DNA of 64,000 nucleotides from a virus. Under the pieces are notes generated by a model that saw only the letters and a list, made by a program, of their open reading frames with translations, was not told where the DNA came from and searched no databases. Each line of letters opens with the position of its first letter. Position 1 is the stretch's first letter. Position numbers and translations under genes: made by a program. Location of the stretch: IMG/VR virus record IMGVR_UViG_3300045988_075249, positions 64,001-128,000 of that record. The stretch is one strand, 5' to 3'. Positions 33,501 to 61,920 of this stretch are shown here, piece by piece.

Positions 33501-36500
33501 TCAATTTCTCCATTTTCATCAAAAGTAAGAGAATTGTTGAATAATCCTTGAAGGTCTGATCTATCTTTCTCAAGATAGGTCTCAGCCTCATCAAGCATCT
33601 TATTATAATTAGCTTGCTGTTTTTCTAACTCTTGAAGCTCTTTCTAATAAGCCTATAATTTCTTCGCTCCATATGCTCTATCTATATTATTACCAATATC
33701 ATCTAATAAATCATTCTAATTCTCAATCTCACGAGTTATTTCATGGTATCTATCTTCTATATCTTCAAGAGTTTTTTCATCTTCGGCATCATATTTTGTA
33801 CCTTCGTTATCTCCGCCAGAATCTTTATTTCCAATATTGTCTGCTGCTATTCTATTCGGATCTAATGCTCCATCAGGATCAAATGCAAATGGCTCCTAAC
33901 CATAATCAAAAATACCATTCTATCCAGATCCCGTACCCTCAGAAGATAAATATGAACCAGCTTCTTTTAGAGCATTAGTAAAATTACCAATAGCATCTCC
34001 GCCCTCGCCGGAAATTTTTAATCCTAGAGTGGGAAGCTCAAAAGGAAGATTCGCTTTGCCAGCTAGCCAATCATCTATCTATAATTTTCCCCATGATTTT
34101 ACATATGGAGTAAAACCTAAACCATATTCAAAATTAGAAATTAAATCTCCTAGTGCTGTTAGAACAGCCCCAGCCGCCTATGAAGTTGAGCTAATTGTAT
34201 TAGCACTCTCGGACATAGTAGAATTAATAACGGCTCCAGCGATACTAGCATCAGTGGACATTGCTTGCATTAAAGCATCGGCGCTTGTATCTAGTCCATT
34301 TGCTAGCGTTATTCCCTAATTAAGAACACCCTAGAGAATCCTTTTATAAGATTCGTTATTAGTCTATTCTAGTCCTACGAGCTATTGTCCAATACTTGAT
34401 ACCATTGCCTAAAATTCTGTCGCAGTAGTATCGAAATTATTATCAATGGTAAAATCTATCGCTCCAAAGCTATCAGCATAGTTTAATAAGTAATCGTAAT
34501 TATCTACTAAACTATTTACAATTCCCATCATGTCTTGGGCATCGCTCACTTGTTTTTCCCAAGTATTTAAATTAGATATATCAGCCATGGCTCTGGCATA
34601 TTCTTCCTCAGAAATTGTAGTTTGATCTACTCCATCTTTGAGTTCCCAAACTCCGTCTGTATTTTTTGTAATATTCTAATTTAATTTAGACTAAGCCGTA
34701 ATTAATGCTTTCGTGGCAGCGATTGTTCCCTCATAGTAATCATCCATATTGATGGTTCCAGATTTAAACTTTTTATTTAAATCTATCAGTCCATCCCCTA
34801 TAGACCCGGTTGCAGCGACCAAAGTAGCTTCATATAAATCAGTTTCTTCTATATTATCGTCAATTTCTTCGTTTAATCTATGAAAGCCTGCATCTATATT
34901 ACTTAATCTTTTATTAATCGTATCAAAATATTCTTGGGCAGATATTGCCCCCTCCTGATACGCTTTCGCATTATCACTAAGGGCCTATGTTCTCTCTTTA
35001 AACAATTCTACATCAGTTTCACTTGTAAACGTATAATCATTTATTGCATTTGAATCACTGGCTCGCGATACTAATTCATCCCACATATTAATATAATTCT
35101 AGAGATAATCAGTATTTACCCCATATTTTTCTTTCATAGATTCTATTGTAGCATCAAGAATTTGCTCTTCTTGTCGTTCAGAATCTAAAAATGTCTAAAG
35201 AGACTAATTTGTTAGTTTATACGCATCTCCAACTTTAACAATATACTAAGCATATCTTTCATCTGCATTAATGAGTTCTTGAACTTGATCCATGGTTAGA
35301 TAGCCTTCTTGATCCTTATATGACTATAAGGCAGATTCAAGAGCACTCTAACTATTATTTAATTCTTCCAATATAGATTTTAAGTCGTCTATTCTCTTTA
35401 CATTTATATTTATTTCATTAATTTTATAATTATCTAAAAATTCCTATAATTCTTCAACCGTATCAAAATTATCTATATTGACACCCATAAGGATTTCCCA
35501 ATCCTCATTTGATAGAGAATCAAAATCAAAATCACTAAATTTACTTTCTACTTTTTCCTTTGCTTCATCTACTCTGCTATCTATAAAAGTTAAAAACTCA
35601 TCTACGCTGACTCCAGCTAACATTAATTCATTTTTAATGGATTCTGTTATCAAACCAGAGGCTGCACTAATATCACCACTAGCCAAAGTGCTATAAAGCT
35701 AAGTAGAAATCTATTTAACTGATTGGCTATCTAAAATTGGTTTTAATATAACCTCTTCATATTCACTTTGACTGCCATAAAGATTTTTACGAATAAGAGA
35801 TAACCGCTCCTGCATTGAAGCTATCATTTCTGGATTATACTCAATAACCCCGTCAGTAACAGATTTAATATATGCAGCATAATCATCTTCTGCTTGCTAT
35901 ATAGCTTCAGAATTGTCAGTTACCCACTGTGCCGTAATCTATTCATTTTGAGTAACCCAATCTTGATACTCTACTAAGTAATCACGATAGGCATCAGAAT
36001 TTTTATCAAGGCCCTAAGTAACACTATTAAACCAAGTGTCTGCATCTACGTACTAATTTTTATAAGTATATCTATTCTATTCAAGTACAGATTGAGCATT
36101 TGGATCATTTAAATCCATGCTCTATTCTAACTCTTTAAACCAGCCCTAGTCTCCATTGTATTCATTCCAACTTCTCCACTAGGTTAAATCTGGTCCTCCT
36201 GCCAAACCCTTAGTAGATTTATCATAATTCTCTTCGATAGTTTTTGCCTAGGCTTTTTGCGCTTCTTCTGTTAACTTCTCTTGTAACTCAACCTATCTCT
36301 ACAAAGAAGATTCTGCCTATTTAAGTTTTTCTAATTCTTCTTGTTCGACCATACTTAAAGAATCCTAATTATTTAATTCTTCTATTCTATCTTTCGTTGT
36401 CTATAATTCAGAATTTAAAGATTCTAATGCAGATTTCTAATCCTCATAAGCCTAGGTAGCACTAGATATTTTTTCTCTAGCCTCTTCTTCCGTAACAATA

Positions 36501-39271
36501 ATGAGAGAAATAACATTAACAAGTAAGGTTACTCCCAAAGTGATTAACCCAATAAGTGGTAAAGCAGTTGAGATAGCCGCACCAACAGTAGTAATACCAG
36601 CAGCCGCAGTTTTAGCTGAAGCTCCAACTGTTAAATACGATATTGCAGTTAAACTATTTTGTAATGCCTGCTGTTTAAACAAGGTAGAGATTGTTGGTAA
36701 TAACATTCCAAAGTTAGTAAGAATAACTGTAAAATCTTCAACAGTAAACTCTCCCTCTTTCACAGAATTTGTAAAAGTAGAGAACATGGAATTAATACTT
36801 GTCATTCCCATTGTAACTTGCGATAAAGTGGTTCCTACTTTAACCAATGTCTCAGCCCAGTCTAAAGTAGCATATCTGTTATTCTTTAACCCCTCACTAA
36901 TTTCTTTTGTTTTCTACTGTAATAATTCTAATCCCTATCTAAAAGCCTCAGCACTAATTTCATTATTCTTAAAAGCTGCTACAAGACCACTTAGATCATT
37001 TTTAAATTTAACAGAACCATCACCTAAAGAAGTAATAACTCTATTTAATGCAGCAACGTCTGATTCTGCCCCTTTTAATGCTTCCTAAAACTACTAAGAG
37101 GTAGTAAGATATTCTATTATCTCCTAATTTGTTGCATCTTGAGCACCTTCAAAAAGATTTAGGCTTCTTACTAAATTAATAGTTTCTTGAGAGATTTCAT
37201 TGGTTCCAGAACCAACTAATTTCTATACTTGCTAAAACTCAGAAAGACTTACGCTCGCCACTTTTAATTTGTCAATTAAACTCTAAAGGGCTTGCTAATT
37301 TGTCTTTGAACTATAGAGAATTTCTGTTTCTATGTCCTCATAAAAAGAAAATTTATTTTCATCTTCTAACACAAGCGCCGATAGTAGATTATCCTTCCAT
37401 TTTTTATTGGGAACTAAACGCTCAGACAAACTATTTGTATAAGCTGTAATAAGTTCATCTGATTTGCTAACCTACTACCCAATTAAATTAACCTATGTCT
37501 ATAAAACCTTTACTCTATCTAAATCTTGTTGTAAAATACCAGCCTAGCGCTCAGATAGTTGTGTGGCCGCAGCGGACGCTTCTCCTTCAAGCTAAACAAT
37601 CTAAGCTTGAGTATTTACCATCTATCCCTAAATAGTATTATCAAGTGCGGATTTCGCGATAATATCAGCCATCTATGCGGCTTCAGTTCTCAAAGTTTGC
37701 GCTCTATCCTTTTCTCTCTATCCGATAATACCAAGATTAGAAGCAATATCTCTCATTCCTTGCGCAATCTTATCACCAAAAGCCTTATTCATCAGTAAAG
37801 CAGTTGTTGCTAAAACGCCAGACATTCCGCCTAAACCATCAATAATATCAGCAGTTGTACTTAAAATAGGACTAAGAACATCATCTACCCCAATATAAAA
37901 ATCAGGATTTATTAAACTATCATAAATATCTTCCGCGGATGCTCTTACTCTATCTCTTGCCGCCTCCCAAGATTCAGCATAAATATCTGCTTGTTCTTGT
38001 AGAGATCCTTCTGCTCCATAAGAACTCTCCAAATTTTCCTAGAAGAAATCCCAGTTATCCATAAGAGCAATAAGACGAGTATATTGACGTACTCCAGCCA
38101 CAGTCTGTGCTAATGCAATCTATTGATCATTAGATAGAGTTTCCCATTTCTCTCCCATTTCATCTAATAAAGTATCCATAGTCTTGATTTCTCCATTAAC
38201 GTCAAAGATGTTAATTCCAACTTTATCAAGAGCCTAAGAATATTTATTTAGAGTAGTTCCATCATCAAGTGTTTCTCCAAGATTTAAGCCCTGAATACGT
38301 GCAAATAATGTTCTAAATGCAGTACCTACAGTATTCGTAGATTCACGAGTTGTAGCAGTAACAGTAGCAAGCGCAGATGCGGCATACTCATAACTCAAAC
38401 CTACCGTCTCTGCAACTGCGGCAAACTGCTAGATACCTTCTGAAATTTCATCAGAGCTTGATGCAGTATCTGCACCTAAGCGCACCATGACGTCTGCATA
38501 ATACTCAAGACTTTTACTTCCATCATAGAAGTTATTCCATACCGCAGTTAACTAGTCAGATGCAGTCTAAGCACTAACACCGGCGGCGTTTGCCATTTTT
38601 ATAGTAGTTTCAGTTCTATCTAAAACTTCCTATTCAGTAAGACCCTGTTGATAGTAAATCAGAGCTGCGTCAGTATAATCTACTGTAGTTGTGCTCAATG
38701 CTTTAGCCGCTTCATTAGCCTACTTAGCAAAAACAGCCATATCCTCGGCAGAATTTTCAGTAACTATACGAATGTTTGTCAGAGATTCATTTAAATCTTT
38801 TGCATAACCATAAGCTGTCTCTAAAGAGCCAATAAAACCCTATAAAGTGCTTGCTGTAATCTACCAACGAACCGTATTTTTCATTGTAATCCACAAATCA
38901 GACATTAACTTATTAGTTCTGATTAACGGAGTTTCCGCCGCCATAATAGCCTGAGAAAGATTTAAGAATGTTTCTTGCCCCTAAATTCCCAGTTTGCTTA
39001 GTTGATTATAATAATCTGTTAAAGTCTTTCCGCTTTTTACTAAACTATCATTAAAAGCAGTCAAATCTAACTTACCTGAATTTCCATTAGTAGCCATCTA
39101 AAGATTACGGCTCAATTCAAGGGCCGCCAAAGATGCCTACTGAAGTTCACTAGAAATAGATGGCTAATTGCCTAATTTCTATAAACTATTTATAACTTCA
39201 TTAACAGAGGTTTTTAGCTGACTCGCGTCAGCGGTAAACCCAATCTAATAGTTTAATCTTTTATTAGCCAC
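30572..39271 (-). CDS. Tape measure protein, ~2899 aa, with well over 100 in-frame TAG codons.
   Basis: Seven track ORF pieces (37718..38032, 36452..36847, 35444..35686, 33392..33598, 32837..33106, 32501..32722, 30953..31342) all share one frame (top position = 1 mod 3). 8700 nt = 2900 codons from GTG 39271 (RBS aaaggagg) to TAA 30572-30574. TM segment cluster, long coiled coils and the C-terminal ..GFDTGGYTGE..AKLAFLHEKELVLN motif are typical of tape measure proteins. Confidence 0.8.
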
Positions 39272-39381: not shown

Positions 39382-39912
39382 TTAATCTTTTCCAACCACA
39401 TCTTTAATTACTGATAGTGTTTCAAGATTTTCACCATTCTTAATCTTTTCTAGCATATCAGTAATATATGTATCAAGACCAGAAGCATTTTTATTCATCA
39501 TCTGAATAATGCCGGCCGCAGAACTATTATATCTTGAAATATCGCTTATAGTATCCTTAACTAAATCCTCAATAAAAGATAGTTCCTCCACCGGAATAAT
39601 ATCACGAATTGCATCAATTACACCGTTTGTCTCAAGAGTGTCATAGGTTTTTGCGATATTTTCATGCACATCTTCTGGCTCAAAAGTAATTCCGCCATAC
39701 CATCTGCATATAGCAATAGCAAAATAGGTCTCCACTCTAACTGGACTAAAACAGCCAGTTGCCTCATCTATTGATAAATCAGTGACAAACATAATAAGAT
39801 TTGTTTTATCAGCAATAGGAAGATAATTAGCCACAGACAAAATCTTATCTGCTCCAACCTTTACTTCTGTATATTTAACTTTAGGCTCAAGCCCCAAATC
39901 TTTAAAAGTCAT
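39382..39912 (-). CDS. Tail assembly chaperone-like protein (position-based call).
   Basis: Track ORF immediately upstream of the tape measure gene. Confidence 0.4.
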   Translation of the reverse strand: MTFKDLGLEPKVKYTEVKVGADKILSVANYLPIADKTNLIMFVTDLSIDEATGCFSPVRVETYFAIAICRWYGGITFEPEDVHENIAKTYDTLETNGVIDAIRDIIPVEELSFIEDLVKDTISDISRYNSSAAGIIQMMNKNASGLDTYITDMLEKIKNGENLETLSVIKDVVGKD

Positions 39913-39975: not shown

Positions 39976-41412
39976 TTAATATGCGTATTTAGATAGTATA
40001 TTATTATTTAAAGTTGCTGCAATAGTTAATTTATTTATAACTCCATTGACTATATTACTACGGGTGATTGCATCTAATATGTTTGCTCCAGAATTGCCAT
40101 ACCACTTATTACCCAGAGCGCCTTCTCCACCAATAGAAACCACTTCATGAGCACTATTTCTAACAATATCATCACAGATATTATTAATAATTCGCTAGAT
40201 TGAAAATACTCTACCATTAACTATAATAAACTATCCTAAATGACCCTTCTATGAACTAAACTCACTAGACTGAATCCACTAATTAAAGAAGGACGCTGCA
40301 ACAGAAGCCCGTATATTATTAAACGATTCTTCAAAATCAGCTCCAGTATATCTATGAGCAATCATATTATAAGCAAGATACTTCTCTGGCTAACCAGAAA
40401 AATATTCTCCAACATTCATACTTGAAGAAGCAGAAATTTTATTCTAAGACATTTTCTTATTTTGCCATCTTGCATTTACATTTGTCCCTATCTCTATATT
40501 AAAAGTCTGATTGCCCTTGGTTACTTGCAAACTAAAGGTATCATTATTAAATATATTTGTAGTACCTTTAGACTTAGAGACATTATTCTATCCTTTATCA
40601 ACCCATCGCAATTTTCCACCAGATTGCGCGATTACCTTATCTAATATACTATCCGCGGTATTAACTCCTATTGATATACCCTCTGCAACTATCGCCTAAC
40701 TAATCTAATTTCCAATAACCCTTCTAAATATATAAGCAATAGTATTAGCAAAAGAACGAGAGTTTACTGATCCCTATTCACTTAAACGAGTAACAGCCCT
40801 GTTTAAAGAATCTATTACATCTTTTGCGATATTTATATCTCCTTTGCCAACAGCCATAACATAACTTTGCTATGCCTAATCTATCTAAAAGCTAGTTCCT
40901 ATTAGCTATCTTCCAATCTATGTTAAAGCATCAAGAACATTAACATTTATCATATTCGCTTTCGTTAAAGCTGATATAAGTAACCTAAAGAAATCATTCA
41001 CTCTCTATATTTCCGGTGTACCAGTTGATAACAAGTTATTAAAGCTTCCAACCTATTGCAATATAGTATTATAGTTTTCAAAATCTACCTATCCACCAGC
41101 TAATTCAATACCCTCATTAATACCGGCGGCAATCTAATCAAGAGTAGAGTCTAATAGGGTTCCTATCTCTAGATCACTTAGAATCTTTAATCCACTGGCG
41201 GCGGAAGGCGCTTTTAGCTGCATCTATTCTTGAATTGAGGAGATCTAAGCCTCAATTCCCGCGGTCTATGCTTTATTTACTGCCTATTGATACTATGCGC
41301 TGAATAAGGTATTCGCTGATTCTACGTCGCCATATTCTCTCAAATGGCTACTGTGATATACAATATAGTTAATAGACCAACGCTAAACATAATCATAAAT
41401 ATCAATATCCAT
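39976..41412 (-). CDS. Hypothetical tail protein (478 aa). ~40 TAGs.
   Basis: RBS taaggag plus ATG 41412. 1437 nt = 479 codons to TAA 39976-39978. Confidence 0.55.
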
Positions 41413-41436: not shown

Positions 41437-41462
41437 GAAAAAGGGAGGACATTAAGTCCTCC
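41437..41462 (-). terminator. Hairpin aaagggaggac attaa gtcctcccttt just after the major tail gene.
   Basis: Seen in sequence. Confidence 0.5.
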
Positions 41463-41469
41463 CTTTAGA

Positions 41470-42864
41470 TTAAATTCCGTCATCCTCGGTGACAGAGACT
41501 AACTTATTGCGGGTGCTAGTCTTAGCTTTTGCTGCGGCAGATGTAGCAAAGCTAAGTTTGTTATTAATGGTATAAGTCTTTTCAAAATCACCATTAATCT
41601 TATTAATCTTTGCGGTAATAGGAGTTGCCTGATCTTCGCTAGTAAGAATTACAAGCAATCCTTGAGCTAACTCTTCGCCGCTAACGGTTTGAGTCTTTGT
41701 ATTACCTTCAATTCTTGGGTCTGTAGAGAAGTATCTCTCATAAGCTGGGTTTGTAGTTACCACATTATATTGGGTACTATCACTCTCTACTGGGATTTGC
41801 AGGCTGATCTGAGCAGCTTCTGCTATAGTATCGCCATAAGCCTCAGTGTCATAAGCCTTTCCTGTTACACTACCAGTAACATCAAGCTCTGCGGCTGTAG
41901 CACTATTAGATACGAAACTTACAGTCACATCAGCAGCTTCACTCTCATAAGTACCTACATTCTCAGAGCATGGCTCACGAGTTTCCTCGGTTTCACCGCT
42001 TTCATCAGTGATTACTTGAATTGCAGCCAATACCTTATGGGTTTGGTCGAACTTGGTGTAATCAGGGAAAGCGTCCATTGTAAAGGTAAAGGTAGAAGGA
42101 TCTCCGTTAGCTGCCATGCTGAATGTGAAGTTACTCTGAACTTTACAGTTAGGAATAATAAATTCAGCAGGCATATCTACGCCATCGCTCTCACGACGGA
42201 ATAGAGTTGAAGCCTCAAGATAATAGTTACCACCAAACTTATCAGCAGTAATTTCAATCATCTGTGCTCCACCGGTACGCTTTACATAGTAGTCAACTAA
42301 AACAATGGTTCCCGCAGGAAGTACGCCAGCATGAGAATAACAAGTTAAAGTTGTTTTGCCATCTTCTGTGTAACTTACAGAAACAGGAATACAAGGCTCG
42401 GCATTAACTTGACCATCATCGCCTAACACCATCACAAAGATGTCGGCAGAACGGTGATACATTTCATTATCATGGTCAGTAAATCCATTCCAGCAAGCCT
42501 TGTCTGGAACAATAATAGTATTGGCAGTCTCAACTTCAATCTGAGAAGTCTGGTGAACATAGATAGGAGCTTCTTTTGTTGCATCAAGTAGGCCAGCACC
42601 AGAAAGAATAGAGAAGCTTTCTGGAGAAAGTAGAGCATCTTCCATTGTAAAGGTTAGAGTACGCTCACCTTCCCAAGCAATCAATCTAGAATATCCATGT
42701 CCGCCCTGCGCATATACTGTTGTTGCAGCACCCTCAAGAGTAGAGGTTCTTAAAGTGTCGAAATATAAAACTGGTTCATTTTTGTAGAACTTACGATTAC
42801 CAAGGGTTTGATAACTCTTCGCACGAAGCACTACATCGCAAATCTCACGAATACCAAAACGCAT
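41470..42864 (-). CDS. Major tail protein (tube or sheath). No TAG codons.
   Basis: 464-aa intact track ORF. RBS ttaaggaggaatt. Its own terminator follows. Position between head-tail genes and the chaperone/tape-measure genes. Confidence 0.55.
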   Translation of the reverse strand: MRFGIREICDVVLRAKSYQTLGNRKFYKNEPVLYFDTLRTSTLEGAATTVYAQGGHGYSRLIAWEGERTLTFTMEDALLSPESFSILSGAGLLDATKEAPIYVHQTSQIEVETANTIIVPDKACWNGFTDHDNEMYHRSADIFVMVLGDDGQVNAEPCIPVSVSYTEDGKTTLTCYSHAGVLPAGTIVLVDYYVKRTGGAQMIEITADKFGGNYYLEASTLFRRESDGVDMPAEFIIPNCKVQSNFTFSMAANGDPSTFTFTMDAFPDYTKFDQTHKVLAAIQVITDESGETEETREPCSENVGTYESEAADVTVSFVSNSATAAELDVTGSVTGKAYDTEAYGDTIAEAAQISLQIPVESDSTQYNVVTTNPAYERYFSTDPRIEGNTKTQTVSGEELAQGLLVILTSEDQATPITAKINKINGDFEKTYTINNKLSFATSAAAKAKTSTRNKLVSVTEDDGI

Positions 42865-46008: not shown

Positions 46009-46566
46009 TTACTCGGATATAGTTACTCTACGCTTTGGAGTATCATCACTTGCAACCGATGCTCTTCTAACAGGCTTAACCTCATTTTTAGAATTTTTTC
46101 CTTCGTCCGCGGTTAATTCCAACGCTTTAGTAACGTTAAAACCTAATTGTTTTTCTATCGCATCTCGCTTTGAAATATCATTCAAAGGAAGAGAAACCGC
46201 GTGAGCCTTAATCAAATCTTTTGTCCCATCAGGGGCAAAATCAAGAGCATCCTTGAATTCATCCAAAGAGCATGACTGCATCCACGAATCAATATCTTTC
46301 TCTTTTAACCAATATTCTGGTTCAACTTTCCCATTAATAAGATATTCAATAATTTCTTTATCATCAATTAATAGATAATTATAAATCAGCTTGCGGCCTC
46401 CGGGTGTTTGAACCAACTTTTCAAGCTCAGATACACTAATCTCTTTATGCTCACCTGGATAGAACATACGACGTACACCAAGCTCAGGCAGTTTATATAC
46501 CGCGCGGCCCGCACTTTTATTATAAACAATACACTTATCTTTCATATTATATCTCCTTTTTCTCAA
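46009..46566 (-). CDS. Hypothetical head or connector protein. No TAG.
   Basis: Track ORF, 185 aa. Confidence 0.5.
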   Translation of the reverse strand: MRKRRYNMKDKCIVYNKSAGRAVYKLPELGVRRMFYPGEHKEISVSELEKLVQTPGGRKLIYNYLLIDDKEIIEYLINGKVEPEYWLKEKDIDSWMQSCSLDEFKDALDFAPDGTKDLIKAHAVSLPLNDISKRDAIEKQLGFNVTKALELTADEGKNSKNEVKPVRRASVASDDTPKRRVTISE

Positions 46567-46606
46567 TAAATAAAGGGGATAGGGATATTTCCCTATCCCC
46601 TTTTAA

Positions 46607-47659
46607 TTAACCATTATTTGGATTTGGGTTAGTATTATCAAGCTCACCTTGAAGTTCAGTATCAACGTAAGAGAAAATGTTATTTGCCATCATTACGCCA
46701 ACTCCGACCTTGCGGTAAACCTGAATATCACGAGACCAGTCATCGTTATCATCGCGCTCGCGCACGTGAGTAGTACCCTCAAAAGCAACTTTAACAGGAC
46801 GGGTATCTGCTCCACCGGGGATAACCCAAGCATAACCAGGGTCAATCATCTTTCTAGAGTTAGTCTCATCCTCAAGAGTTTGAGGTAGAATTACCACTCT
46901 AGTTCCCTTGTAGTTAGCAAGGTATCCAGTTCCCCAATACTGATCTCTCATGTTATCAGAAATCCAAGCCTCATTATCTGGAATCATCTTTACTGCAAAC
47001 TCACGAGTACAGTAAATAGTAGGCTGACCATAAGCGCTAGCAGTATTTACAAGATAATCCATAGTGGCTTCATCAAAACCAGCAACGGCACAACGGTTTG
47101 CTGCGGGAAGCTGATTAATAGAACCCATAAGAGCTTGAGCAATCTCTCTATAAATAAGCTCTTGCATACCCTCAGTTACAATCTGAGTAAGTTCTGCGAA
47201 GTTTACTCTTCCGTCGAGGAACTCCTCGAATCCGATACGAGCAGCTCCGCCGATAGCACTTGTACCAACTTCGAAGCTCTCGGAACCGAGCTTAAAGGTC
47301 TCGTATACGCCAGCAAGTCCAACGCGAGTGATGAATTGCTTAGCACGGGTAAGTCCAGTTCTACGAGTAAATACAGGTTTATCTCCCTGTCCGAAAGTTC
47401 TAATCTCGGCAAAATTGCCATAAGAATTGAGTAAACGATTAGGAACAACTTCATCCATAGTTTGCTCAATTAAAGAGAATAGAGTATGTTTATTTTCTCT
47501 ATAAAGTTCATCTGTGCCAACAAGCTCATTTAACTCATTGCGCAAAGTGGTGTTCAAAGCGTCGTAGCTAAAGGATTCTCCTTGATAGCTATAGGTACCA
47601 GAAGGATTTGCATTGGCGACAGTCTTCATTAAACTAAGTAAATTAGCTTTATCTAACAT
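46607..47659 (-). CDS. Major capsid protein (HK97-fold-like). No TAG codons.
   Basis: 350-aa intact track ORF directly downstream of the scaffold gene. Composition and position typical of a major capsid protein. Confidence 0.7.
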   Translation of the reverse strand: MLDKANLLSLMKTVANANPSGTYSYQGESFSYDALNTTLRNELNELVGTDELYRENKHTLFSLIEQTMDEVVPNRLLNSYGNFAEIRTFGQGDKPVFTRRTGLTRAKQFITRVGLAGVYETFKLGSESFEVGTSAIGGAARIGFEEFLDGRVNFAELTQIVTEGMQELIYREIAQALMGSINQLPAANRCAVAGFDEATMDYLVNTASAYGQPTIYCTREFAVKMIPDNEAWISDNMRDQYWGTGYLANYKGTRVVILPQTLEDETNSRKMIDPGYAWVIPGGADTRPVKVAFEGTTHVRERDDNDDWSRDIQVYRKVGVGVMMANNIFSYVDTELQGELDNTNPNPNNG

Positions 47660-47678: not shown

Positions 47679-48368
47679 TTAACCTACACGCTGTACTTTT
47701 ACACCGGGTTGAAGATCTGGCATGGTGTATACTTTTACTACTGTAAAGATAGGATCTAAATCTCCACCCTTAGCAGAAGATTCAGTATCCTCGGTTAAAT
47801 AACCATCAGTATTAATCTTTAAACGATCTCCAACAGCAAGTGAACCGGCATCAGCCTTAATAGTATTAGTCGTCCAAATATCACCAATACTAATCTTAAT
47901 TACACGTGGAACCATTTTAGTTCCTTCTGGCATCAAAGCTGGATAAGTAAATGTTTCCATATTCTTTTTATATGCTACGTTACTACCTTCACGTACAGCT
48001 TCACCAGTATAGTCATTAATGGTAGCGAGTGTAGAAACGGTCTGTCCGATTGGGCTATAAACACGAGCGTTATAGTTATCTTTAATCATAGCAAAATCGG
48101 CATCAGTCTCACGATCTCTATAAATTTTTACCTCATTGAATACCATCATCCAAGCACCAGAAGTAGCCCCTGTGCTAAAATCACATACACCCTTAGCATA
48201 GTCATACTTTACGAATTGACCATTCTCAAGAAGGGTGATTGTGCTAGCAGCAGGAAGCTGGGCATATACCTGACCATTTCTTGGAGCGGAAAGATGGTTT
48301 GGTTCTACTTGACCATATCCATATTGGACAAAAGTAGCATTACCTAATCTTTTAGAACTCTTAGCCAT
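47679..48368 (-). CDS. Capsid-associated protein (decoration or auxiliary capsid protein). No TAG.
   Basis: Track ORF lying between the scaffold and major capsid genes. Confidence 0.45.
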   Translation of the reverse strand: MAKSSKRLGNATFVQYGYGQVEPNHLSAPRNGQVYAQLPAASTITLLENGQFVKYDYAKGVCDFSTGATSGAWMMVFNEVKIYRDRETDADFAMIKDNYNARVYSPIGQTVSTLATINDYTGEAVREGSNVAYKKNMETFTYPALMPEGTKMVPRVIKISIGDIWTTNTIKADAGSLAVGDRLKINTDGYLTEDTESSAKGGDLDPIFTVVKVYTMPDLQPGVKVQRVG

Positions 48369-49649: not shown

Positions 49650-51152
49650 TTATGACGAACTTTCTTGATTAGCTATTGTCTTATCAGACTTTTCGCCATC
49701 TTCCTTCTTTGGCCTTCCGGCCCCATTACTGTTAGTTGAACTTGTCTATTTATTCTAAGAATTAGTATTAGATGACTAATTATTATTACCCAAATCTTTT
49801 CCGCTTCTGGTATTAGAACTCATAGGAGGAATCATAATCTCCGCCAAGTTCAATACTTCATTCTCAAATGTTAATGTAGCTAAGATGCTTGATTGAGAAT
49901 GCCCTAAAGCGATTTGTGGCAACATCTTAGAATATCCTAACTGAGCGTGTTCTTTATACAACTTTGATAATTCTTTATAATTAAACTATGTTGTCTCTAA
50001 CATCTCAGCTCTAAATTCATAATGATTCTTGCGGCTAAATTTTTCTACCACTCTATTTAGTAATTCTGTAAACATAAGAGGTATATCTCTAACGCTAGAT
50101 TCATCAGTCAATATAGAATTTGTTACAGCAATATTTCCATCGGCATTAAACAAATTATGAGTTACACCTGAATTGTTGTAAACTGTACGTTCAACCTTTT
50201 CCAAATCGTCGGTTGTTATATTGGAGTTATTGTCTTTTGTATCAATTTTTTCAATGTCCGCAAAAGTTGTCAATACATCTACTCCAATAGCTCTTTTAAG
50301 CATAGCAACCGCGTTATTATGAATATCTCTAGCTTCATCAACGTCAAAAATTAAATCACCATTCTTATCAAGAGGCAACTTCTAAATGATGATTTTCAAT
50401 AGTTGCTACATTGTTTTTTGACGATCCAATTCTTGCGCCTAATCCAAATCAATAATAGAAGGAATAACTCCCGCAAGGAAAGGAAATTCATTATCGTTTA
50501 AGCTAAACTTAACTGAAACACTAGGATCTAGAGGATACCAAACAGTTGTACTCCCCGGATAATCCCCCTTTAATTTCCCCTACTTATAAAGAATATAAGC
50601 CTTCTATATATCTTGAGGAAAAATCTTTAATATCTGAACCTTATACTGCGGATTTGGGAAATAAACATCAAAAAATTCAAGATTTAATTCAACAATAGGG
50701 TTAGGGCCTTGGAAATATCTATTGCGACAATATGAAGCAGGTAGTTTCTAAATGGCAAACCTATCCCCGAAGTCAATAATTATGCCATAATATGCCCCTT
50801 CTTTGATAATATCTAATGATATATTGCCAAACATTCTCTTTATATTAGATTTATCAAGATAAAGCAATACTTTAGAAAAGTCTTTTAATAGCTTCTCCTT
50901 ATCTTTCTGCGCGCTTACGGTATATGGGGTTATATACCAATCAAATCTGTATAAGAAAGCTAGGTATTTACATAATCTGTAATATATACCACTACTTTCA
51001 TAGAAATAATTAGAAATCTCTCTTAGAGTTCTATAATCATGCTTATAGATAGCATTTAATACGAACTTCTTATCTCCATAATTTCTATTTATTTTCTTAT
51101 ATGTACCTAGATTAATAAGCGCATCATCTACCGAGCGAAGCCCCACCCGCAT
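49650..51152 (-). CDS. Portal protein. ~4 TAGs.
   Basis: Track ORFs 50748..51152, 49986..50378 and 49776..49961 are in one frame. 1503 nt = 501 codons to TAA 49650-49652. Confidence 0.65.
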
Positions 51153-51295
51153 CTTAGCATAATCAACGCTCTTATAATCTAAGTCGTCCTCTTCCTCTTG
51201 CTACTAATAGCGAGTAACGTCTTGATTTAATAAATCAAAACCTTTGGCTCTAATACTTTCTTGTCTACTCTTTAACAAAATATCACCTCCCGGAT

Positions 51296-51654: not shown

Positions 51655-53400
51655 TCACACCTCGCTCATAAACATAAAGTCTGAAAATCTTCTACTTTTA
51701 CGCTTGCGTTTACTATCTTCTTCCTATTTAATATAATACAACCCATATTCAAGCGCAGAGAATTTATCTTTAGGCACGGATTTATTTGCTTGTTTCAAAA
51801 TAATATTCACGCCTTCATTTTCTTCTCGCAAATTCAGCATTTCTTCTCTTAATATAGAAGTTAAAGTGAACGGTTTTAAATATTCTGCCCGTTCTTCTGG
51901 TTTCATAGCCTAACCTTTTTTAGTACCAAGCAATTTATTTCTTGCGACTTTTTCATCAATCAAAAATCTAAGTTTTCCTGCTCTTAATTGTGTCTAAACA
52001 TTACTATGTGCCTCGGTATTAATAGGGGCGTTAGCCTTAATTTCATAAATAGCATCATATTCCGTATTCTCTGTTCTAAATCGTTTATACTCACCATCTT
52101 CATCATTGGCCACACCAAAGTCAGGAAAAACTTCATTGGTATCAGGCACTATCTAAGGCTTAACCATATAATCCATCAATCCGGCGCCAAGGCCATTACC
52201 GTCGATTACAATAATCTTAGCCTTATAATTATAATATAATCTCTTTAACTTAATTGCCTAGTCTTCAAAATGTTCATCGTCCATAGTATATATATTTACC
52301 AAAGACTTTATAGCAGGTCCTTGTGACTAAGGAGTTACCTTAAAGACACAAACAACAGATTGACATTTCTTTCTACCTACATCAACAGAAAGAACATAAT
52401 AAGCCTGTGCAGAAGATCTTCCAGACGATTCATATTCAGGCTAAAGAAGTTTTCTACTTCTATCAAAAGCATCTCCATTAAAGAAAGCATCTTCAACAGT
52501 TCCACTCCACTTAGATTCATACTCTCTATCGAATGAAGCTTCATTAAAAGTACCGTCCTATTTTAGTTCCTATACGAAATTGCGGGATTGCAATCCTACT
52601 AGTACAGGAATTCTCCATGTTCCGCCCATAACAATACTCTTTTCTGGTTCTAATATCATGCGTACAAGGAGAGTAATAAGTTTATTGTAGGGGAACGTAT
52701 TCTTCCATCCCGCAGTAGTAACATAAATCTAGGATTTATTGAGTGTTTCCTCTTCATGAACAGAACCATCTAAACATCTTCTATCAACGTTCATCAAGGG
52801 AATTAAAACTTCGTTTAGAATATCTCCATCTACGCCGACGCACTCCTCAATAAGTCCGCCATGTCTACGTTTACCACGAGAAGATTCTCTAGCTGCTACG
52901 TTATCAAAGTAGGAGCCGTTTTTGAAGATATATTTACAATAATCTTTTCCTTCCTATGTCTTACCTCGTCTCCAATCAATTTCTCTTTGGAGCGCGGGGA
53001 TTGCATTACATATTTCCTAGACTTTTTCTTTAGCAATTCCAGCTGCTTGTTCCTTTCCTCCAGAAGTAATGAATAACTTACATCCGGGATATAAAATACA
53101 TCTACACATAAGCACCGTTACAGAAAGAAATGACTTAGAATAAGCACGGGGGAATACCATGTATACATACTTATACCGCATTGCGGCCCGCAAGAAAACT
53201 CTCTAGTAAAAATAAAAGTTAATTTCTTTTTTCCTAGTTTCATCCCCACCAGTCTGCAAGAAATCAATAAACATATCTGGATATTCTCTCCAAAAAGCTA
53301 TATACTATCTTGCCGCGGGGATTATGGCTCGAACTCTTTCTTCTGAAAGACCAATCTTTTTATTATTATTCGAGAGGTTTAATAAATCTTTTAATGCCAT
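51655..53400 (-). CDS. terL: Terminase large subunit. ~15 TAGs.
   Basis: RBS aaggagg plus ATG 53400. 1746 nt = 582 codons to TGA 51655-51657. ATPase-like N-terminal domain and RNaseH-like nuclease region (..VLSVDVGRKK..KAKIIVIDGNGLGAGLMDY..). Confidence 0.7.
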
Positions 53401-55754: not shown

Positions 55755-56093
55755 ATGTTTTTCGATACACCCTATTCTGAATTACCAAAACGAGCATAGT
55801 ATTACTTTAACATTTTAATTATAAGCATAGCAGTATAGCCAGAAGTTCTAACAGACATACTTGGACATAAAAACACTGTTGACTTATGGGATGTTCAAAA
55901 TATCAATAATGCAAGACCAACGGCTTTGCATATTTATGCTTCATATAATTTAGATAGAGATTCTGATTATGAAATATGTTGTATCCCACATTAGGTTTTA
56001 GAAATAACGCCTAATAACAAAATATCATTCTATGATATGATTGATTATGATACTGATGATCCATGGGGGCTAGAACCAGATGCAATAGATTAA
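55755..56093 (+). CDS. Hypothetical protein. 3 TAGs.
   Basis: RBS gggagg plus ATG 55755. 339 nt to TAA 56091-56093. Confidence 0.45.
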
Positions 56094-56871
56094 CATAAAA
56101 GAATATTTTAAACAATAGAAAGATGAATTGCGGCAGTCCGATGTCAAGCCATCATTGACCATAATTGATGCAACTAACGGGGATGCCGGAAATTAGATTT
56201 ATATATAGAAAAAAGTAGACGACTTTGATGAATTAGGATGGCCAGTAAGCGTGATTAAAGTTCCAGAACACTGGACTCCCGCAGATTTAAATAATTACAT
56301 AAATAGTATAGATACTGATTGTATTATAGCACAAATGCCACTAAGAGATTCATTGAGTTCTTTTTCTATTGATGTAATTCCTACGATAAAAGACTGCGAC
56401 GGTTTAACTTCTTCTACTCTTGTTTTACCGGCAACGGTAAGAGGAATAGTAGACTATCTTGATGACTGTGGTTTTAAGTATGAAGGTAAAAGTGCTTTAA
56501 TATTAGGTAGAAGTAATATAGTTGGTAAGCCAATGGCGAAAGAGTTGTTGGCGAGAAATATGACTGTATCTATCTGTCACAGTAAAACAAATGTAAATGC
56601 GAAGCTTTATTTAGCAAGAATAGCAGATTTAGTAGTATCCGCAGTTGGAGATTTTACTTTGACAAGAGAGGCTTGCCCTCACGCTATTGTTGTTGATGTT
56701 GGTATTCGTAGAAATTAGGCGAATTTTATTCAAGGCGATTTTGTTGAACTTGAAGATATTGCAAAGAGAAATGAAGTGTGGTCAACTCCTGTGCCCGGAG
56801 GGGTGGGATTATTGACTAGATTGGGGTTGATGAAAAATTGCTTATAGTTAGCGAAACAGGCGCGAAGATAA
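56080..56871 (+). CDS. folD: Bifunctional methylenetetrahydrofolate dehydrogenase/cyclohydrolase. ~7 in-frame TAGs.
   Basis: Track ORF 56251..56718 is the C-terminal domain (..GRSNIVGKPMA..VVDVGI..). Read-through gives the N-terminus MQ*INIKEYFKQ*KDEL..AGN*IYI*KK.. and C-terminus ..VPGGVGLLT..KNCL*LAK. These align with E. coli FolD AQQ, ASQIY and TLQAC, with * on Q each time. Confidence 0.8.
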
Positions 56872-57375: not shown

Positions 57376-57433
57376 AATAAGACAATTATTTAATTTTGCC
57401 CAACGGCGTTTTTATAAAAGGAGGCCGCGATGA

Positions 57434-57958
57434 CAAAACAAGAGCGCAATCAAGGCACGAGCGCATTATGAAGATATTAAAACTAGACTTGCCGCAAACA
57501 CTAAATTATCTATCGAGCGCACATATGTATATAGTCCAGATTCTTTTACACAGCATGAATCCGGCAATCAGAAACCAGCTTTTACTCTAACAGATATGGA
57601 TAGCGTATTCAACTTATCTGACAATGGTAGAACAGCAATTCTTAACTATGCCAGTTATAAAAGTCCTGGTGGTTTCTTCCTAGAAGGTAGTCCTGCGCAT
57701 AGATACCAGAGTGTGAGTAAAAGCGAGAATGATAGAGTTCTTGAAAATCGAATTCACTTTATGTATCAGATTGCTGAGGAAAACGGTGTGGAAAATCTAG
57801 TCGCGGGAGCTTGGGGTTGTGGAGTTTTTATGCAGGATCCGTACACGGTCGCAACCTTACTCATAGGCGCAGCACGCAATTATAATATTCCAAATATTTA
57901 TTTTGCAATTCCCAGAATTTTAGAGCATAAACAGTTAATTATAGCTAGAAAAGATTGA
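57434..57958 (+). CDS. Macro-domain protein (TIGR02452/DUF2263-like). N-terminal region is out of frame with its RBS-associated ATG at 57430.
   Basis: Track ORF 57596..57958 has 54 further protein-like in-frame codons upstream to TGA 57431-57433. RBS aaaggagg plus ATG 57430 is in the +1 frame and stops after 13 codons. One fewer A in the A4 run at 57435-57438 would fuse them. Confidence 0.5.
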   Translation, partial: QNKSAIKARAHYEDIKTRLAANTKLSIERTYVYSPDSFTQHESGNQKPAFTLTDMDSVFNLSDNGRTAILNYASYKSPGGFFLEGSPAHRYQSVSKSENDRVLENRIHFMYQIAEENGVENLVAGAWGCGVFMQDPYTVATLLIGAARNYNIPNIYFAIPRILEHKQLIIARKD

Positions 57959-58451
57959 AAAGATTCTTTGGGGAAGCAAAGAAGTGGTTCGGGAAAGAGA
58001 TGGCATTATGGATATAAGTCTCGATACAGACTTATTCCATGATTGGAGAAACTAAAGTTGTTTGCCGCGCGAAGAATAAAGATTACTTTTTGATTTATGA
58101 TGAGCTGTCCTGAAGGGACTGGATTTAGACCAATGGAAGCTGAGGAGATTTATACCATTAAGGGATATTTTTGCCCTAACTGTAAAGGTTAAAAGTTTAG
58201 CCTTTCATCTTTTTTTCGTTATTGAGATTGAAAGTGCGATTTAGATTTTGAAATGGCGTGGCAGAACGAATTTGCGAAAAAATTTCCAGTTTTTCCCAAA
58301 ATACACCCTCCCCTTTCACATGGTAAAGTGCTGAAGTGTAGTTGGCCTCTTTCGCTCGCTAAAGTATGAAAGTAAAAAGCCCCGCCCTAAAGGAATACGC
58401 GCGCGTAAAGAATTTGTGCAAAAGAGAGAGAAAGAAATTTCAAAAAAACTA

Positions 58452-58480
58452 TTGACAAGTGGGCGTTTTGGTGGTAAACT
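58452..58480 (+). promoter_or_regulatory. Sigma70-like promoter TTGACA-17-TAAACT overlapping the palindrome CTGGACTTGTCCAG (58479-58492).
   Basis: Seen in sequence. Confidence 0.45.
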
Positions 58481-58551
58481 GGACTTGTCCAGTAGAGGAC
58501 AGGGCAAAACTCAATGTACCTTGAAAATCAAAAATTTTTCAAAAAAAGGTA

Positions 58552-58580
58552 TTGACAAGCCCACTAAAGTCTGATACAAT
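58552..58580 (+). promoter_or_regulatory. Sigma70 consensus-like promoter TTGACA-17-TACAAT upstream of gene 58633.
   Basis: Seen in sequence. Followed by the conserved leader ..gaaagggagtaaaagaaaATG. Confidence 0.55.
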
Positions 58581-58632
58581 ACAGACAGAACAAAAGAGAA
58601 CCACACCACAAAAAGAAAGGGAGTAAAAGAAA

Positions 58633-59010
58633 ATGAAAAAAATCGACTTTACCAACGATGACAGAAAAGTCATCATGGAATACCTGGCCGCTAAACAGGC
58701 AGTAGCGGCGGCGGAGGTCGCAGAGAAAGCGGCTAAGGCTAAAGCGAAAGAGCTTTTCACCCGGTTAGGGAAAGAGTTCAAGACCACAGATAAGACCTCT
58801 TATCTGTACGGCACAGTCCAGATAAAGGGCGCCGCTTATGCGGTGGTATATAAAGAGACTACTGCTAAAGGAGCGATAGACTGGAAAGCCTACGCTATGG
58901 CGTTAGGTGGAACAAAGGCAGAGGCGGAGCAATACCGCAAGCGTCCGACGGTCAGAACCTCTCTTGATTGGGCAACGAAAGACCAGCAAAAAGAACTCAA
59001 TCAGCAGTAG
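58633..59010 (+). CDS. Hypothetical early protein (125 aa). Ends at TAG 59008-59010, directly followed by a terminator hairpin. Read-through would reach TGA 59089-59091.
   Basis: Track ORF. Strong RBS. Confidence 0.55.
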   Translation: MKKIDFTNDDRKVIMEYLAAKQAVAAAEVAEKAAKAKAKELFTRLGKEFKTTDKTSYLYGTVQIKGAAYAVVYKETTAKGAIDWKAYAMALGGTKAEAEQYRKRPTVRTSLDWATKDQQKELNQQ

Positions 59011-59011
59011 T

Positions 59012-59050: not shown

Positions 59051-59080
59051 TTATAATAATCAAAAGAAAGAAGGCTGTAT

Positions 59081-61893: not shown

Positions 61894-61920
61894 TCCCTCT
61901 CCACCATAGGAGAAACAAAT

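Follow-up and report, generated by a model that had tools for sequence, protein, structure and literature searches.

Amber codons are kept out of the capsid and putative tail tube genes of a stop-recoding gut phage, probably by weak translational selection

Introduction

Why would a gut phage that appears to read TAG as glutamine, and whose late operon is dense in that codon, leave its major capsid protein gene without a single one? The gene (46607..47659, minus strand; 350 aa), assigned to the SPbeta YonB family by a Pfam label, lies in a 64-kb window, the whole stretch of DNA analysed here (IMG/VR record IMGVR_UViG_3300045988_075249, positions 64,001 to 128,000). Earlier work on gut phages (Borges et al., bioRxiv 10.1101/2021.08.26.457843; Yutin et al., PMC7886860) took recoding for a switch of late or lysis genes, and a timing device remains the prevailing view of it, yet in this window the bulk virion proteins stay TAG-free inside a heavily recoded late operon. 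A first-pass annotation of the window had proposed that TAG is strongly non-uniform among genes, that the pattern is not simply early versus late, and that it reflects selection against the recoded codon in very highly expressed or early-needed proteins, consistent with limiting suppressor capacity.

Results

The genome and its genetic code

The genome to which the window belongs is that of a siphovirus of SPbeta-like or Phass-like type, ~140 kb long. The window encodes the YonG, YonD, YonB, YomW, YomV and YomU families (names that are precomputed Pfam labels on identical proteins) together with a very long tape measure protein, and its capsid protein is similar to those of Phass-1, Enterococcus EF1 and SPbeta-like phages. 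A local copy of Pfam gave no match for the capsid, tube, portal and terminase-like proteins, an Rfam search of the window gave none either, and megablast of 12.5 kb of the window against GenBank phages found a single 33-nt match of chance size. The AGGAGG-type ribosome-binding sites, and relatives that infect Enterococcus and Bacillus, suggest a Bacillota host.

Genes were called anew with TAA and TGA as the sole stops (table 15). Open reading frames of at least 100 aa sum to 23,134 aa under table 15 versus 8,097 aa under table 11, and genes cut by in-frame TAG become full-length once it is read through. TAG positions align with glutamine in homologues: where the window has TAG, CAA, CAG or TAG fills 252 of the 523 non-gap cells in seven distant lineages, with lysine and glutamate next. 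The predicted reading of TAG is thus glutamine, inserted by an amber suppressor tRNA that the phage encodes. In four contigs of the clade with a capsid protein 96-97% identical to that of the window, a tRNA with anticodon CTA, located by an anticodon-arm pattern taken from Phass-1, sits roughly 50 kb beyond the capsid gene, outside the window-equivalent region. Phass-1 itself carries three CTA-anticodon tRNAs, and two of its suppressor tRNA genes directly precede nrdD, on the strand of that gene. No suppressor tRNA with anticodon CUA was found in the 64-kb window, nor any tRNA in the 5 kb past its end (where the last open reading frame has no relatives found) or within 10 kb of nrdD in 14 relatives; in relatives, a suppressor search that took in 10 kb around the HAD-like gene was likewise negative, and the exact terminator pattern used in the suppressor tRNA search is absent from IMG/VR.

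TAG is unevenly distributed among genes

The 52 genes called under table 15 contain 368 TAG among 853 Gln-equivalent codons. A first heterogeneity test on 53 open reading frames (pooled TAG fraction 0.426) gave a chi-squared of 159.4 on 52 df, p = 8e-13, and none of 20000 permutations reached the observed statistic. The single binomial rate for all genes against which the first-pass annotation had staked its claim is therefore rejected; the non-uniformity is real, and chance is excluded. One of these frames, 14600-14821 (0/11 TAG), was rejected as a gene, being the non-coding template repeat of a diversity-generating retroelement, and a binomial null deviance of 188.6 (51 df) is obtained once this pseudo-ORF is left out.

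Recounting confirmed that in-frame TAG is absent from the capsid gene (0/13) and also from the putative tail tube, or major tail, protein gene (41470..42864, minus strand; 464 aa; 0/15), the gene of the capsid module directly upstream of the capsid gene (47679..48368, minus; 229 aa; 0/8), the small gene that follows the capsid gene (46009..46566, minus; 0/3), the anaerobic ribonucleotide reductase gene nrdD (606..2795, plus; 729 aa; 0/31) and the dUTPase gene dut (4644..5261, plus; PF00692; 0/7). The zeros of 46009-46566, with 3 Gln codons, and of dut, with 7, are uninformative taken singly, and the former is a weak case. So is a gene that separates the tube region from the tape measure gene (39382..39912, minus; 176 aa; 0/1), which has its own consensus promoter, TTGACA-17-TATAAT at 39973-39945, and a hairpin behind it at 39343-39309. 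A gene for a membrane-anchored Q/N/C-rich protein (7635..8540, minus; phrog_16490) has TAG at only 2 of 26 Gln-equivalent codons.

At the other end of the distribution, the tape measure gene (30572..39271, minus; 2899 aa; PF10145 PhageMin_Tail) contains 102 TAG among 203 Gln-equivalent codons, in keeping with the earlier figure of more than 100, and the counts given for the RuvC-like resolvase gene (5258..5737, plus; PF02075; 7/12), the FolD-like gene (56041..56871, plus; THF_DHG_CYH labels; 7/14) and nrdG of the nrdD operon (2792..3265, plus; 2/6) also hold. The TAG-richest long gene (39976..41412, minus; 478 aa) has 25 of 35, not the approximately 40 first reported, and 22584-25373 has 27 TAG. 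What had been taken for a single gene at 8565-9236 is two adjacent genes on the minus strand in the same frame, 8811-9236 (8/18 TAG) and 8565-8798 (4/9), together 12 TAG; an in-frame TAA at 8811-8813 parts them, and 8565-8798 starts from an ATG of its own behind a separate ribosome-binding site. Further TAG-rich genes are those of the portal protein (49650..51278, minus; phrog_2739; 12/27) and the large terminase-like protein (51655..53400, minus; 14/23).

TAG avoidance in the virion genes is specific to the reading frame

By tblastn, the capsid protein has matches in Bacillus phages and Phass-1 (51%) to proteins annotated as the major capsid protein. The protein of 41470-42864 belongs to phrog_2729, virion structural protein, and its tube label rests on the precomputed Pfam name YomU_Tube of an identical protein; from a mediocre structural model (pLDDT 61), the best PDB match in a fold search was a JBD30 baseplate/tail composite chain (E = 1.6e-3, low TM-score), the remaining matches being Ig-like domains aligned to the C-terminal part. 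The 47679-48368 protein has no Pfam match, and its AlphaFold model is unusable (pLDDT 43), too poor for naming. Sequence searches of the PDB with the capsid, tube and 47679 proteins found no match. Terminator-like hairpins lie directly 3' of the capsid gene (14 bp, 46572..46603, minus) and, followed by a T run, directly 3' of the tube gene (11 bp, 41440..41466, minus).

These TAG-free genes sit on the same strand as, and among, the TAG-rich portal, terminase-like and tape measure genes of the late operon. In-frame TAG occurs at 0 per kb in the TAG-free genes versus 8.9 per kb elsewhere; in the two other frames the TAG-free genes have 5.0 and 7.1 per kb versus 9.95 and 7.9 elsewhere. The avoidance is therefore specific to the reading frame. 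The strength of ribosome-binding sites does not separate TAG-free from TAG-rich genes.

TAG avoidance is conserved across lineages

Eight lineages were compared, with capsid identities of 51-97% and a shared ancestry that makes them not fully independent. None of 111 Gln-equivalent codons of the capsid gene is TAG in the eight, nor any of 50 in the tube gene in seven, and the orthologue of 47679 has 1 of 81 in eight. Pooled across the eight lineages, the three virion genes have 1/242 TAG versus 350/1341 in their neighbours (Fisher p = 2e-27). The weaker cases have 4/48 (46009-46566, eight lineages) and 1/28 (39382-39912, five lineages).

TAG gains have been largely independent, since 200 of 258 TAG columns are found in one lineage alone. 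Of the 15 conserved glutamine columns in the TAG-free genes, 11 alternate between CAA and CAG and none has acquired TAG, whereas in other genes TAG appears in 52 of 69 such columns (p = 4e-8). The avoidance has thus been kept over evolutionary time despite synonymous turnover. Two separate CAG-to-TAG variants in capsid genes of very close relatives indicate that TAG there is tolerated without spreading.

Exempt genes carry the codon bias of highly expressed genes

Principal-component analysis of synonymous usage, with the Gln codons left out, gave a first axis that correlates with TAG fraction (rho 0.63, p = 1e-5) and has at one extreme, in order, 7635-8540, the capsid gene, the tube gene and 47679-48368. 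The loadings set CGT, TTC, AAC, TAC, GCT and ATT against ATA, AGA, TTA and TTT; ATA usage is 0.07 in the exempt genes versus 0.31 in the others, and that of CGT is 0.46 versus 0.15. At other amino acids, then, the exempt genes carry the classic codon bias of highly expressed genes; 46009-46566 is not strongly biased. The same bias is present in all seven other lineages, and the whole Phass-1 genome has a bias in the same direction, with a main codon axis that is largely a GC3 axis and could reflect mosaic origin as well as expression. Entering codon bias and module as covariates lowers the deviance from 188.6 to 80.5, and what is left is still significant (49 df, p = 0.003).

Outside the exempt genes, TAG behaves much like any other product of mutation. 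In ordinary late genes TAG:CAG is 298:53 and the neutral proxy TTG:CTG is 137:19 (p = 0.41), a match that marks TAG as near-neutral there, whereas the exempt genes give 0:19 for the one and 13:3 for the other (p = 4e-7). TAG is favoured towards neither the 5' nor the 3' end of genes. The base after TAG is less often T (0.16 versus 0.23-0.27), in relatives too (0.15 versus 0.23), and from this depletion a residual cost per TAG is plausible.

nrdD and the early/late gradient

The nrdD gene, at 0/31, departs strongly from the window rate (p = 4e-8). Its codon bias is not strong and does not explain the zero: with codon bias and module both fitted, it is the main outlier (residual p = 1e-3), and it is accounted for only in part. 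In 34 recoded relatives nrdD is depleted in TAG, not free of it, with 57/1010 (5.6%) versus 1155/6784 (17%) in the flanks. The same operon contains nrdG, ruvC and a kinase-like gene that carry TAG, and dUTPase has TAG in two Phass-type genomes (PMC10607447). There is also a gradient across the window: TAG makes up 28% of Gln-equivalent codons in the metabolic module versus 54% in the late module, and an array of small early-type genes on the plus strand (57396..63719; GC 0.42-0.44), within a block at 57.4-64 kb, is readable in the standard code, with at least two of its genes ending in TAG.

Discussion

We think it probable that weak translational selection acts against a slightly costly suppressed codon, that its effect is visible solely in the most expressed genes, and that it lies atop the early/late gradient. 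TAG in most late genes would be a near-neutral synonymous glutamine codon at mutational equilibrium, one C-to-T change away from CAG. Each TAG may carry a small cost, through residual termination by RF1, through slower or less accurate decoding, or through demand on one suppressor tRNA species. Such a cost would scale with the number of times the codon is translated, and for that reason selection would purge TAG in the most-translated genes alone, those of the capsid, the tail tube, the protein encoded directly upstream of the capsid gene, and 7635-8540. From function labels, codon bias and 3' hairpins, we infer the highest expression for the exempt genes. A second layer, already known, would be the gradient itself, from the standard-code early block through the metabolic module to the late module. 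The recoded TAG would be, in short, a slightly costly non-preferred codon and not a late-gene switch alone.

Limiting suppressor capacity, as first proposed, is one among several possible forms of the cost. By calculation, a 10% yield from the tape measure gene, with its 102 TAG, would take a read-through of about 0.98 or more at each codon. This implies efficient suppression late in infection and sets a lower bound on that efficiency which can be tested. Each TAG probably costs little, then, and matters only when multiplied by very high expression. For the abundant virion proteins, selection against TAG is supported by the eight-lineage conservation, the frame-specificity, the codon bias and the CAA/CAG turnover; for early-needed proteins, the fit of nrdD is loose. 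The initial interpretation thus stands in part, with expression level judged from function and codon bias.

Could timing do the work instead? If TAG-free genes were translated before suppressor tRNA had built up, they would have to remain legible to the host's standard code. Such a model has been published for recoded phages, and it would account for the standard-code block, for the gap between the metabolic and late modules, for the depletion of nrdD across 34 recoded relatives and for the placement of the two Phass-1 suppressor tRNA genes directly upstream of nrdD. However, the late structural genes as a class show no dependence on the recoded codon: those for capsid and tube, like 47679-48368, are TAG-free amid a TAG-rich late operon, and the first two would be useless without the TAG-rich portal, terminase-like and tape measure products. 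Within the early operon of nrdD, moreover, nrdG, ruvC and the kinase-like gene contain TAG, and timing does not predict that codons for Arg, Ile, Phe, Asn and Leu should be biased likewise. The remark that the pattern is not simply early versus late has held up on both counts, the late operon and the step from nrdD with none to nrdG with two, and timing is unlikely to be the main cause.

Alternatively, TAG could be positively selected as an attenuator that tunes stoichiometry in low-copy proteins such as the tape measure, fibres, portal and terminase, TAG-free genes being the default. TAG is indeed densest in proteins present in a few copies per virion (the tape measure gene, 39976-41412 and 22584-25373), and as yield drops as r to the power n, TAG density could set ratios within one operon. 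We nonetheless regard tuning as improbable: with TAG:CAG equal to the neutral proxy in ordinary late genes, positive selection is unneeded, TAG has no positional bias in genes, and its positions turn over fast between lineages. The departure from the proxy lies in the exempt genes, which suggests selection on those and not on the others.

A third possibility is that accuracy matters and not capacity. If the suppressor, or near-cognate tRNAs, inserted a non-glutamine residue at a fraction of TAG codons, large symmetric lattices could not bear the mixed subunits, and the exempt proteins of known role, capsid and tube, are lattice builders. Lysine and glutamate are the commonest non-Gln residues opposite TAG, but ordinary glutamine substitution gives the same. 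The portal, likewise a symmetric assembly, holds 12 TAG, and 7635-8540, outside the virion module, has the same codon bias and low TAG; on this evidence we consider the accuracy reading very improbable. Finally, an origin with no selection at all, from chance, glutamine content, local base composition or recent acquisition of genes from standard-code phages, is scarcely credible, for although the 46-48 kb interval is slightly GC-richer (0.398) and GC3 is 0.288 in TAG-free versus 0.250 in other genes, chance is rejected, the exempt genes have 8-31 Gln codons, their out-of-frame TAG and TTG:CTG are ordinary, and capsid identities over the lineages (97/80/76/64/65/64/55/51%) track those of the neighbouring terminase-like gene (99/62/73/71/64/71/72/43%), which argues for vertical descent within the module.

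With weak translational selection as the preferred reading, a more general rule for stop-recoding phages is quite possible, and we offer it tentatively: proteins needed at hundreds of copies per virion would keep to the universal code, and it is the parts needed in few copies (portal, terminase, tape measure, fibres, lysis proteins) that would drift to the recoded codon. Suppression would then never be entirely free, and the code switch would gate assembly via the low-copy parts alone. If true, the density of in-frame recoded codons may allow relative expression in uncultured recoded phages to be gauged from sequence alone. A hint beyond the present lineage comes from a survey of phages with code 15: of the 475 capsid genes that could be identified under table 15, 407 had already been found under table 11. 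There is a warning here as well, that capsid markers found under the standard code do not imply an unrecoded phage.

Under selection, mutation and drift, a few highly expressed genes of bacteria and phages are codon-biased while the rest stay near mutational equilibrium. If each suppressed TAG costs a little, the pattern described here is a prediction of this ordinary theory of codon usage. As in classical codon bias, CGT, TTC, AAC, TAC, GCT and ATT are preferred, ATA and AGA are avoided, and a handful of genes are affected; unlike in classical codon bias, the avoided codon is presumably a stop in the host, decoded by a virus-supplied tRNA that would compete with release factor. In-frame reassigned stops are also spread non-randomly, rare in highly expressed genes and falling with the codon adaptation index, in Blastocrithidia (PMC12153298) and the ciliate PL0344 (PMC10553269), where the pattern was taken for a burden on translation. 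Those genomes are cellular, with measured expression and altered release factors, whereas here a virus would impose its code on a presumed standard-code host and expression is judged indirectly.

Of the same broad lineage is Phass-1 of the proposed Phassvirus group, whose description lists recoded ORFs without analysing why some are not recoded (Babkin et al., PMC10607447). It shares with the present phage a capsid protein (51% identical), an ~3000-aa tape measure, nrdD/nrdG, dUTPase, TAG to Gln and, going by the related contigs, tRNA-Sup-CTA, and its capsid and tube-like genes are likewise TAG-free; it belongs to a different genus-level group, with a GC content of 44.5% versus about 35% here and no megablast match. 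A further hint beyond the lineage, a capsid gene without TAG, comes from Crassvirales: in an Egyptian amber-reassigned genus, the absence of alternative codon usage from the capsid gene was called a surprise (bioRxiv 10.64898/2026.08.21.746148). That case concerns an unrelated order and a single genome, with no statistics, and diversifying selection was suggested instead. Exemption of tail proteins is not universal, because a 'tail tube' family has been reported to be preferentially recoded in crAss-like phages (Borges et al.; Yutin et al.). The phages of those two studies resemble ours in reading TAG as Gln via a suppressor tRNA (a predicted one in our case), in concentrating TAG in structural genes and in having a standard-code early block. 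That work sought families that prefer the recoded codon, whereas here we describe the opposite tail, late genes that are exempt and that track codon bias and not timing. Work on recoded eukaryotes had already made the principle known; applied to phages, it adds a refinement to the late-gene-switch model.

Results

With TAG as a stop (table 11), reading frames of at least 100 aa in the window, which has a GC content of 35%, sum to 8,097 aa, compared with 23,134 aa when TAG is read as glutamine (table 15), among them a 2,899-aa tape measure gene (30572-39271, minus strand); long reading frames depend on TAG being read through. The capsid protein matches those of Phass-1 (51% identity), Enterococcus phage EF1 (38%), SPbeta-like phages and annotated Bacillus phage capsid proteins, proteins of identical sequence in public assemblies are assigned to the Pfam families YonG_N, YonD_N, YonB, YomW, YomV_2nd, YomU_Tube and PhageMin_Tail, and the portal and reverse transcriptase genes have PHROGs matches, which together point to an SPbeta-like or Phass-like siphovirus of an estimated ~141-146 kb. 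It belongs to the Phass group (PMC10607447) but to another genus, because megablast of 12.5 kb of window DNA against GenBank phages gave nothing beyond one 33-nt match of chance size. In a codon alignment of at least 13 orthologous genes from seven more distant lineages, window TAG codons stand opposite CAA (130), CAG (58) and TAG (64), together 252 of 523 non-gap cells, followed by Lys (50) and Glu (45); on this alignment, TAG means glutamine in the window phage. No tRNA gene was found in the 64-kb window. Four contigs with a capsid protein 96-97% identical to the window's encode a 76-nt tRNA with anticodon CTA, homologous to one of three tRNA-Sup-CTA genes in Phass-1 and part of a small cluster (Ser, Sup, Leu, Cys); it lies ~50 kb from their capsid gene, which would explain its absence from the window.

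Our gene calls gave 368 TAG among 864 Gln-equivalent codons (CAA, CAG and TAG) in 53 ORFs. A single binomial TAG rate is rejected (chi2 159.4, 52 df, p 8e-13), none of 20,000 permutations was as extreme as the observed heterogeneity statistic, and of the ORFs with 8 or more Gln-equivalent codons five are TAG-free, against 0.06 expected. One of these five, 14600-14821, was rejected as a gene, being the template repeat of a diversity-generating retroelement; its removal left 853 Gln-equivalent codons in 52 genes and a null deviance of 188.6 on 51 df. The retroelement (12156-16196) consists of a target gene (12156-13961) with its variable repeat at 13846-13947, an Avd-like gene (14043-14537), a template repeat (14569-14670) that is 78% identical to the variable repeat, with all core mismatches at template adenines, and a reverse transcriptase gene (14979-16196) with a YMDD motif and a match to phrog_1423.

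The six genes that the first-pass annotation listed as TAG-free all proved so on recounting: the capsid gene (46607-47659; 0 of 13 Gln-equivalent codons), the putative tail tube gene (41470-42864; 0 of 15) and a capsid-module gene (47679-48368; 0 of 8), all on the minus strand and here called exempt genes, together with 46009-46566 (0 of 3), nrdD (606-2795, plus strand; 0 of 31) and dut (4644-5261, plus strand; 0 of 7). Both 46009-46566 and dut have too few Gln codons for individual weight, and TAG is present in the dUTPase of two Phass-type genomes (PMC10607447). Its TAG counts were also right for the tape measure gene (102), ruvC (5258-5737; 7), the folD-like gene (56041-56871; 7) and nrdG (2792-3265; 2). 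The gene at 39976-41412 contains 25 TAG, not ~40, and 8565-9236, taken as one gene, is in truth two small, Gln-rich, same-frame genes on the minus strand with 12 TAG jointly, split by a TAA at 8811-8813 that is followed by a ribosome-binding site and ATG.

Thirty related IMG/VR loci and Phass-1 fall into eight lineages, with capsid identities to the window of 97, 81, 76, 66, 65, 64, 55 and 51%. Over these lineages TAG accounts for 0 of 111 Gln-equivalent codons in the capsid gene, 0 of 50 in the tube gene and 1 of 81 in the 47679 orthologue, versus 350 of 1341 in neighbouring genes (13-52% by lineage; Fisher p 2e-27). The pattern is not one inherited state, because 200 of 258 TAG-bearing columns are limited to a single lineage. 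At conserved Gln columns of the exempt genes, CAA and CAG switch in 11 of 15 and TAG occurs in none; at those of other genes, TAG occurs in at least one lineage at 52 of 69 (contrast p 4e-8). Is a TAG-free capsid gene then an absolute requirement? Within the closest clade there are two independent CAG-to-TAG variants of this gene, on contigs 96-97% identical to the window: residue 240 in one locus (L005), and residue 313, CAG in every other lineage, in two others (L006 and L007; capsid gene at 10001-11050). TAG is thus possible and viable in the capsid gene, yet lost over longer times, which is the signature of weak purifying selection and argues against an absolute requirement.

CAG becomes TAG by a C-to-T change at the first position, just as CTG becomes TTG in leucine. 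The TAG:CAG ratio in ordinary late genes (298:53) is indistinguishable from TTG:CTG (137:19; p 0.41); the exempt genes show 13:3 for TTG:CTG but 0:19 for TAG:CAG (p 4e-7). With this neutral ratio, and with TAG positions evenly distributed along genes, TAG outside the exempt genes looks neutral, so the TAG-free genes, rather than the TAG-dense ones, call for special explanation. Site avoidance at the DNA level is ruled out by the confinement of TAG avoidance to the reading frame: the out-of-frame density is 5.0 and 7.1 TAG per kb in exempt genes and 9.95 and 7.9 elsewhere, the in-frame density 0 versus 8.9.

Exempt and other late genes differ in synonymous codon use at many amino acids, as in the shares, within their amino acid, of CGT (0.46 in exempt, 0.15 in other late genes), ATA (0.07, 0.31), CTT (0.45, 0.21), TTC (0.42, 0.21), GGT (0.46, 0.30) and ACG (0.01, 0.08). 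The bias is in the manner of highly expressed genes of low-GC bacteria, and the contrasts recur in each of the seven other lineages. In an unsupervised principal-component analysis of synonymous usage that excluded Gln codons, the extreme of the first axis was formed by four genes: 7635-8540 (TAG 2 of 26), the capsid gene, the tube gene and 47679-48368. Gene scores on this axis track TAG fraction (Spearman 0.63, p 1e-5), and a binomial model with module (late or not) and codon axis lowers the deviance from 188.6 to 80.5. TAG heterogeneity is also strong over the whole Phass-1 genome (chi2 414, 105 df), where capsid and tube-like genes are TAG-free and lie at the codon-biased end of an axis that is there largely GC3. 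The most codon-biased gene of the window, 7635-8540 (minus strand), encodes a 301-aa protein with an N-terminal membrane segment, Q/N-rich repeats and CCC(D/E)T motifs, which matches phrog_16490, has homologues in thousands, is without a Pfam family and is presumably very highly expressed. Strong terminator-like hairpins lie directly 3' of the capsid gene (46603-46572) and tube gene (41466-41440), as is often the case for structural genes expressed in abundance; ribosome-binding sites did not discriminate between TAG-free and TAG-rich genes among the window genes compared. We infer that the exempt genes are highly expressed.

Two further loci have features of their own. Gene 39382-39912 has a strong terminator-like hairpin directly behind it (39309-39343) and a perfect TTGACA-17-TATAAT promoter match ahead of it (39945-39973), and may be a small separate transcription unit within the tail module. 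A small serine recombinase/invertase-like gene (9816-10487, minus strand), recognized by sequence motif, lies beside fibre-like genes (10807-11895) and a change of coding strand at about 12000; an invertible segment is one possibility here, a resolvase another.

The TAG share is 28% in the metabolic and 54% in the late module, an early/late gradient like the published picture for recoded phages. A block of small plus-strand early-type genes (57396-63719; GC 0.42-0.44) is readable in the standard code and includes the TAG-terminated genes 58633-59010 and 63002-63226, so TAG may be a genuine stop in the 57.4-64 kb block yet encode Gln in other parts of this genome. Two copies of the leader 'aagaaagggagtaaaagaaa ATG' stand in the block, at 58633 and 61654, and an AbrB/MazE-like gene lies at 62454-62810.

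The absence of TAG from nrdD is only partly explained. This gene is not strongly codon-biased and is the main outlier of the binomial model (20% TAG expected, 0 of 31 observed, p 1e-3). Among 34 distinct recoded relatives, TAG makes up 57 of 1010 Gln-equivalent codons in nrdD versus 1155 of 6784 in its flanks, a consistent, roughly threefold depletion, but not freedom from TAG; nrdD of the closest relatives (93% identical) has 2 TAG. Directly ahead of nrdD in Phass-1, in the same orientation, stand a tRNA-Leu gene and two amber suppressor tRNA genes (L112 3377-3638 = 62445-62703), an arrangement that would fit nrdD expression when the suppressor first appears; in 14 close relatives of the window there is no tRNA gene within 10 kb of nrdD. 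Three loci (L032-L034) combine a capsid 96-97% identical to the window's with an nrdD 93% identical, in an alignment ~21 residues longer and with 2 TAG, and nrdD may have a history partly separate from the structural module.

Discussion

Why would a phage that uses TAG freely keep it out of its capsid and tube genes? The first-pass annotation invoked selection against TAG in very highly expressed or early-needed proteins under limiting suppressor capacity. Its observation stands with minor corrections, and there is good support for selection that keeps TAG out of the most abundant virion proteins; the interpretation as a whole is only partly supported, with early need a possibility for nrdD and limiting suppressor capacity one possible form of the cost. 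By calculation, a read-through of 0.95 per codon would give a tape measure gene with 102 TAG a full-length yield of 0.5%; with 0.98 the yield rises to 13%, with 0.99 to 36%. Read-through must consequently be efficient in late infection, a point against a grossly limiting suppressor.

The main explanation, which we consider probable, is weak translational selection against a slightly costly TAG in the most expressed genes. At 0.95-0.99 read-through, a capsid gene with the background number of 7 TAG would yield 7-30% less product and release truncated subunits. Assuming 775-955 capsid subunits per virion and a tail about 430 nm long built from 300-650 tube subunits, background TAG in the capsid and tube genes would add an estimated ~8,000-12,000 TAG decodings per virion, on a rough reckoning several times the total for all other virion proteins. 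Across all TAG-using window genes, T directly follows in-frame TAG at a frequency of 0.16, versus 0.23-0.27 after CAA/CAG (p 3e-4), and 20 related loci (L001, L008-L026) give 0.15 versus 0.23 (p 0.0015). In E. coli, U right after a stop codon favours termination; the depletion of T would fit residual release-factor competition and suggests that the bases next to a suppressed codon are under selection.

Borges et al. (bioRxiv 10.1101/2021.08.26.457843) scored TAG preference family by family in crAss-like phages and reported only TAG-preferring families, a tail tube family among them. For Yutin et al. (PMC7886860), in-frame stops within the capsid gene counted as evidence that a phage is recoded; not every recoded phage, then, exempts its capsid gene. 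A 2026 preprint (bioRxiv 10.64898/2026.08.21.746148) noted a TAG-free Crassvirales capsid gene as a surprise, and Cook et al. (PMC11210395), with 715 code-15 genomes, could identify a capsid gene in 407 of them under table 11 and in 475 under table 15, which we take as an indirect sign that the capsid genes that can be identified are mostly TAG-poor. Reassigned stop codons are depleted in highly expressed genes of Blastocrithidia (PMC12153298) and a ciliate (PMC10553269), so that the window supplies a further case of a known principle, one that refines the phage model without overturning it.
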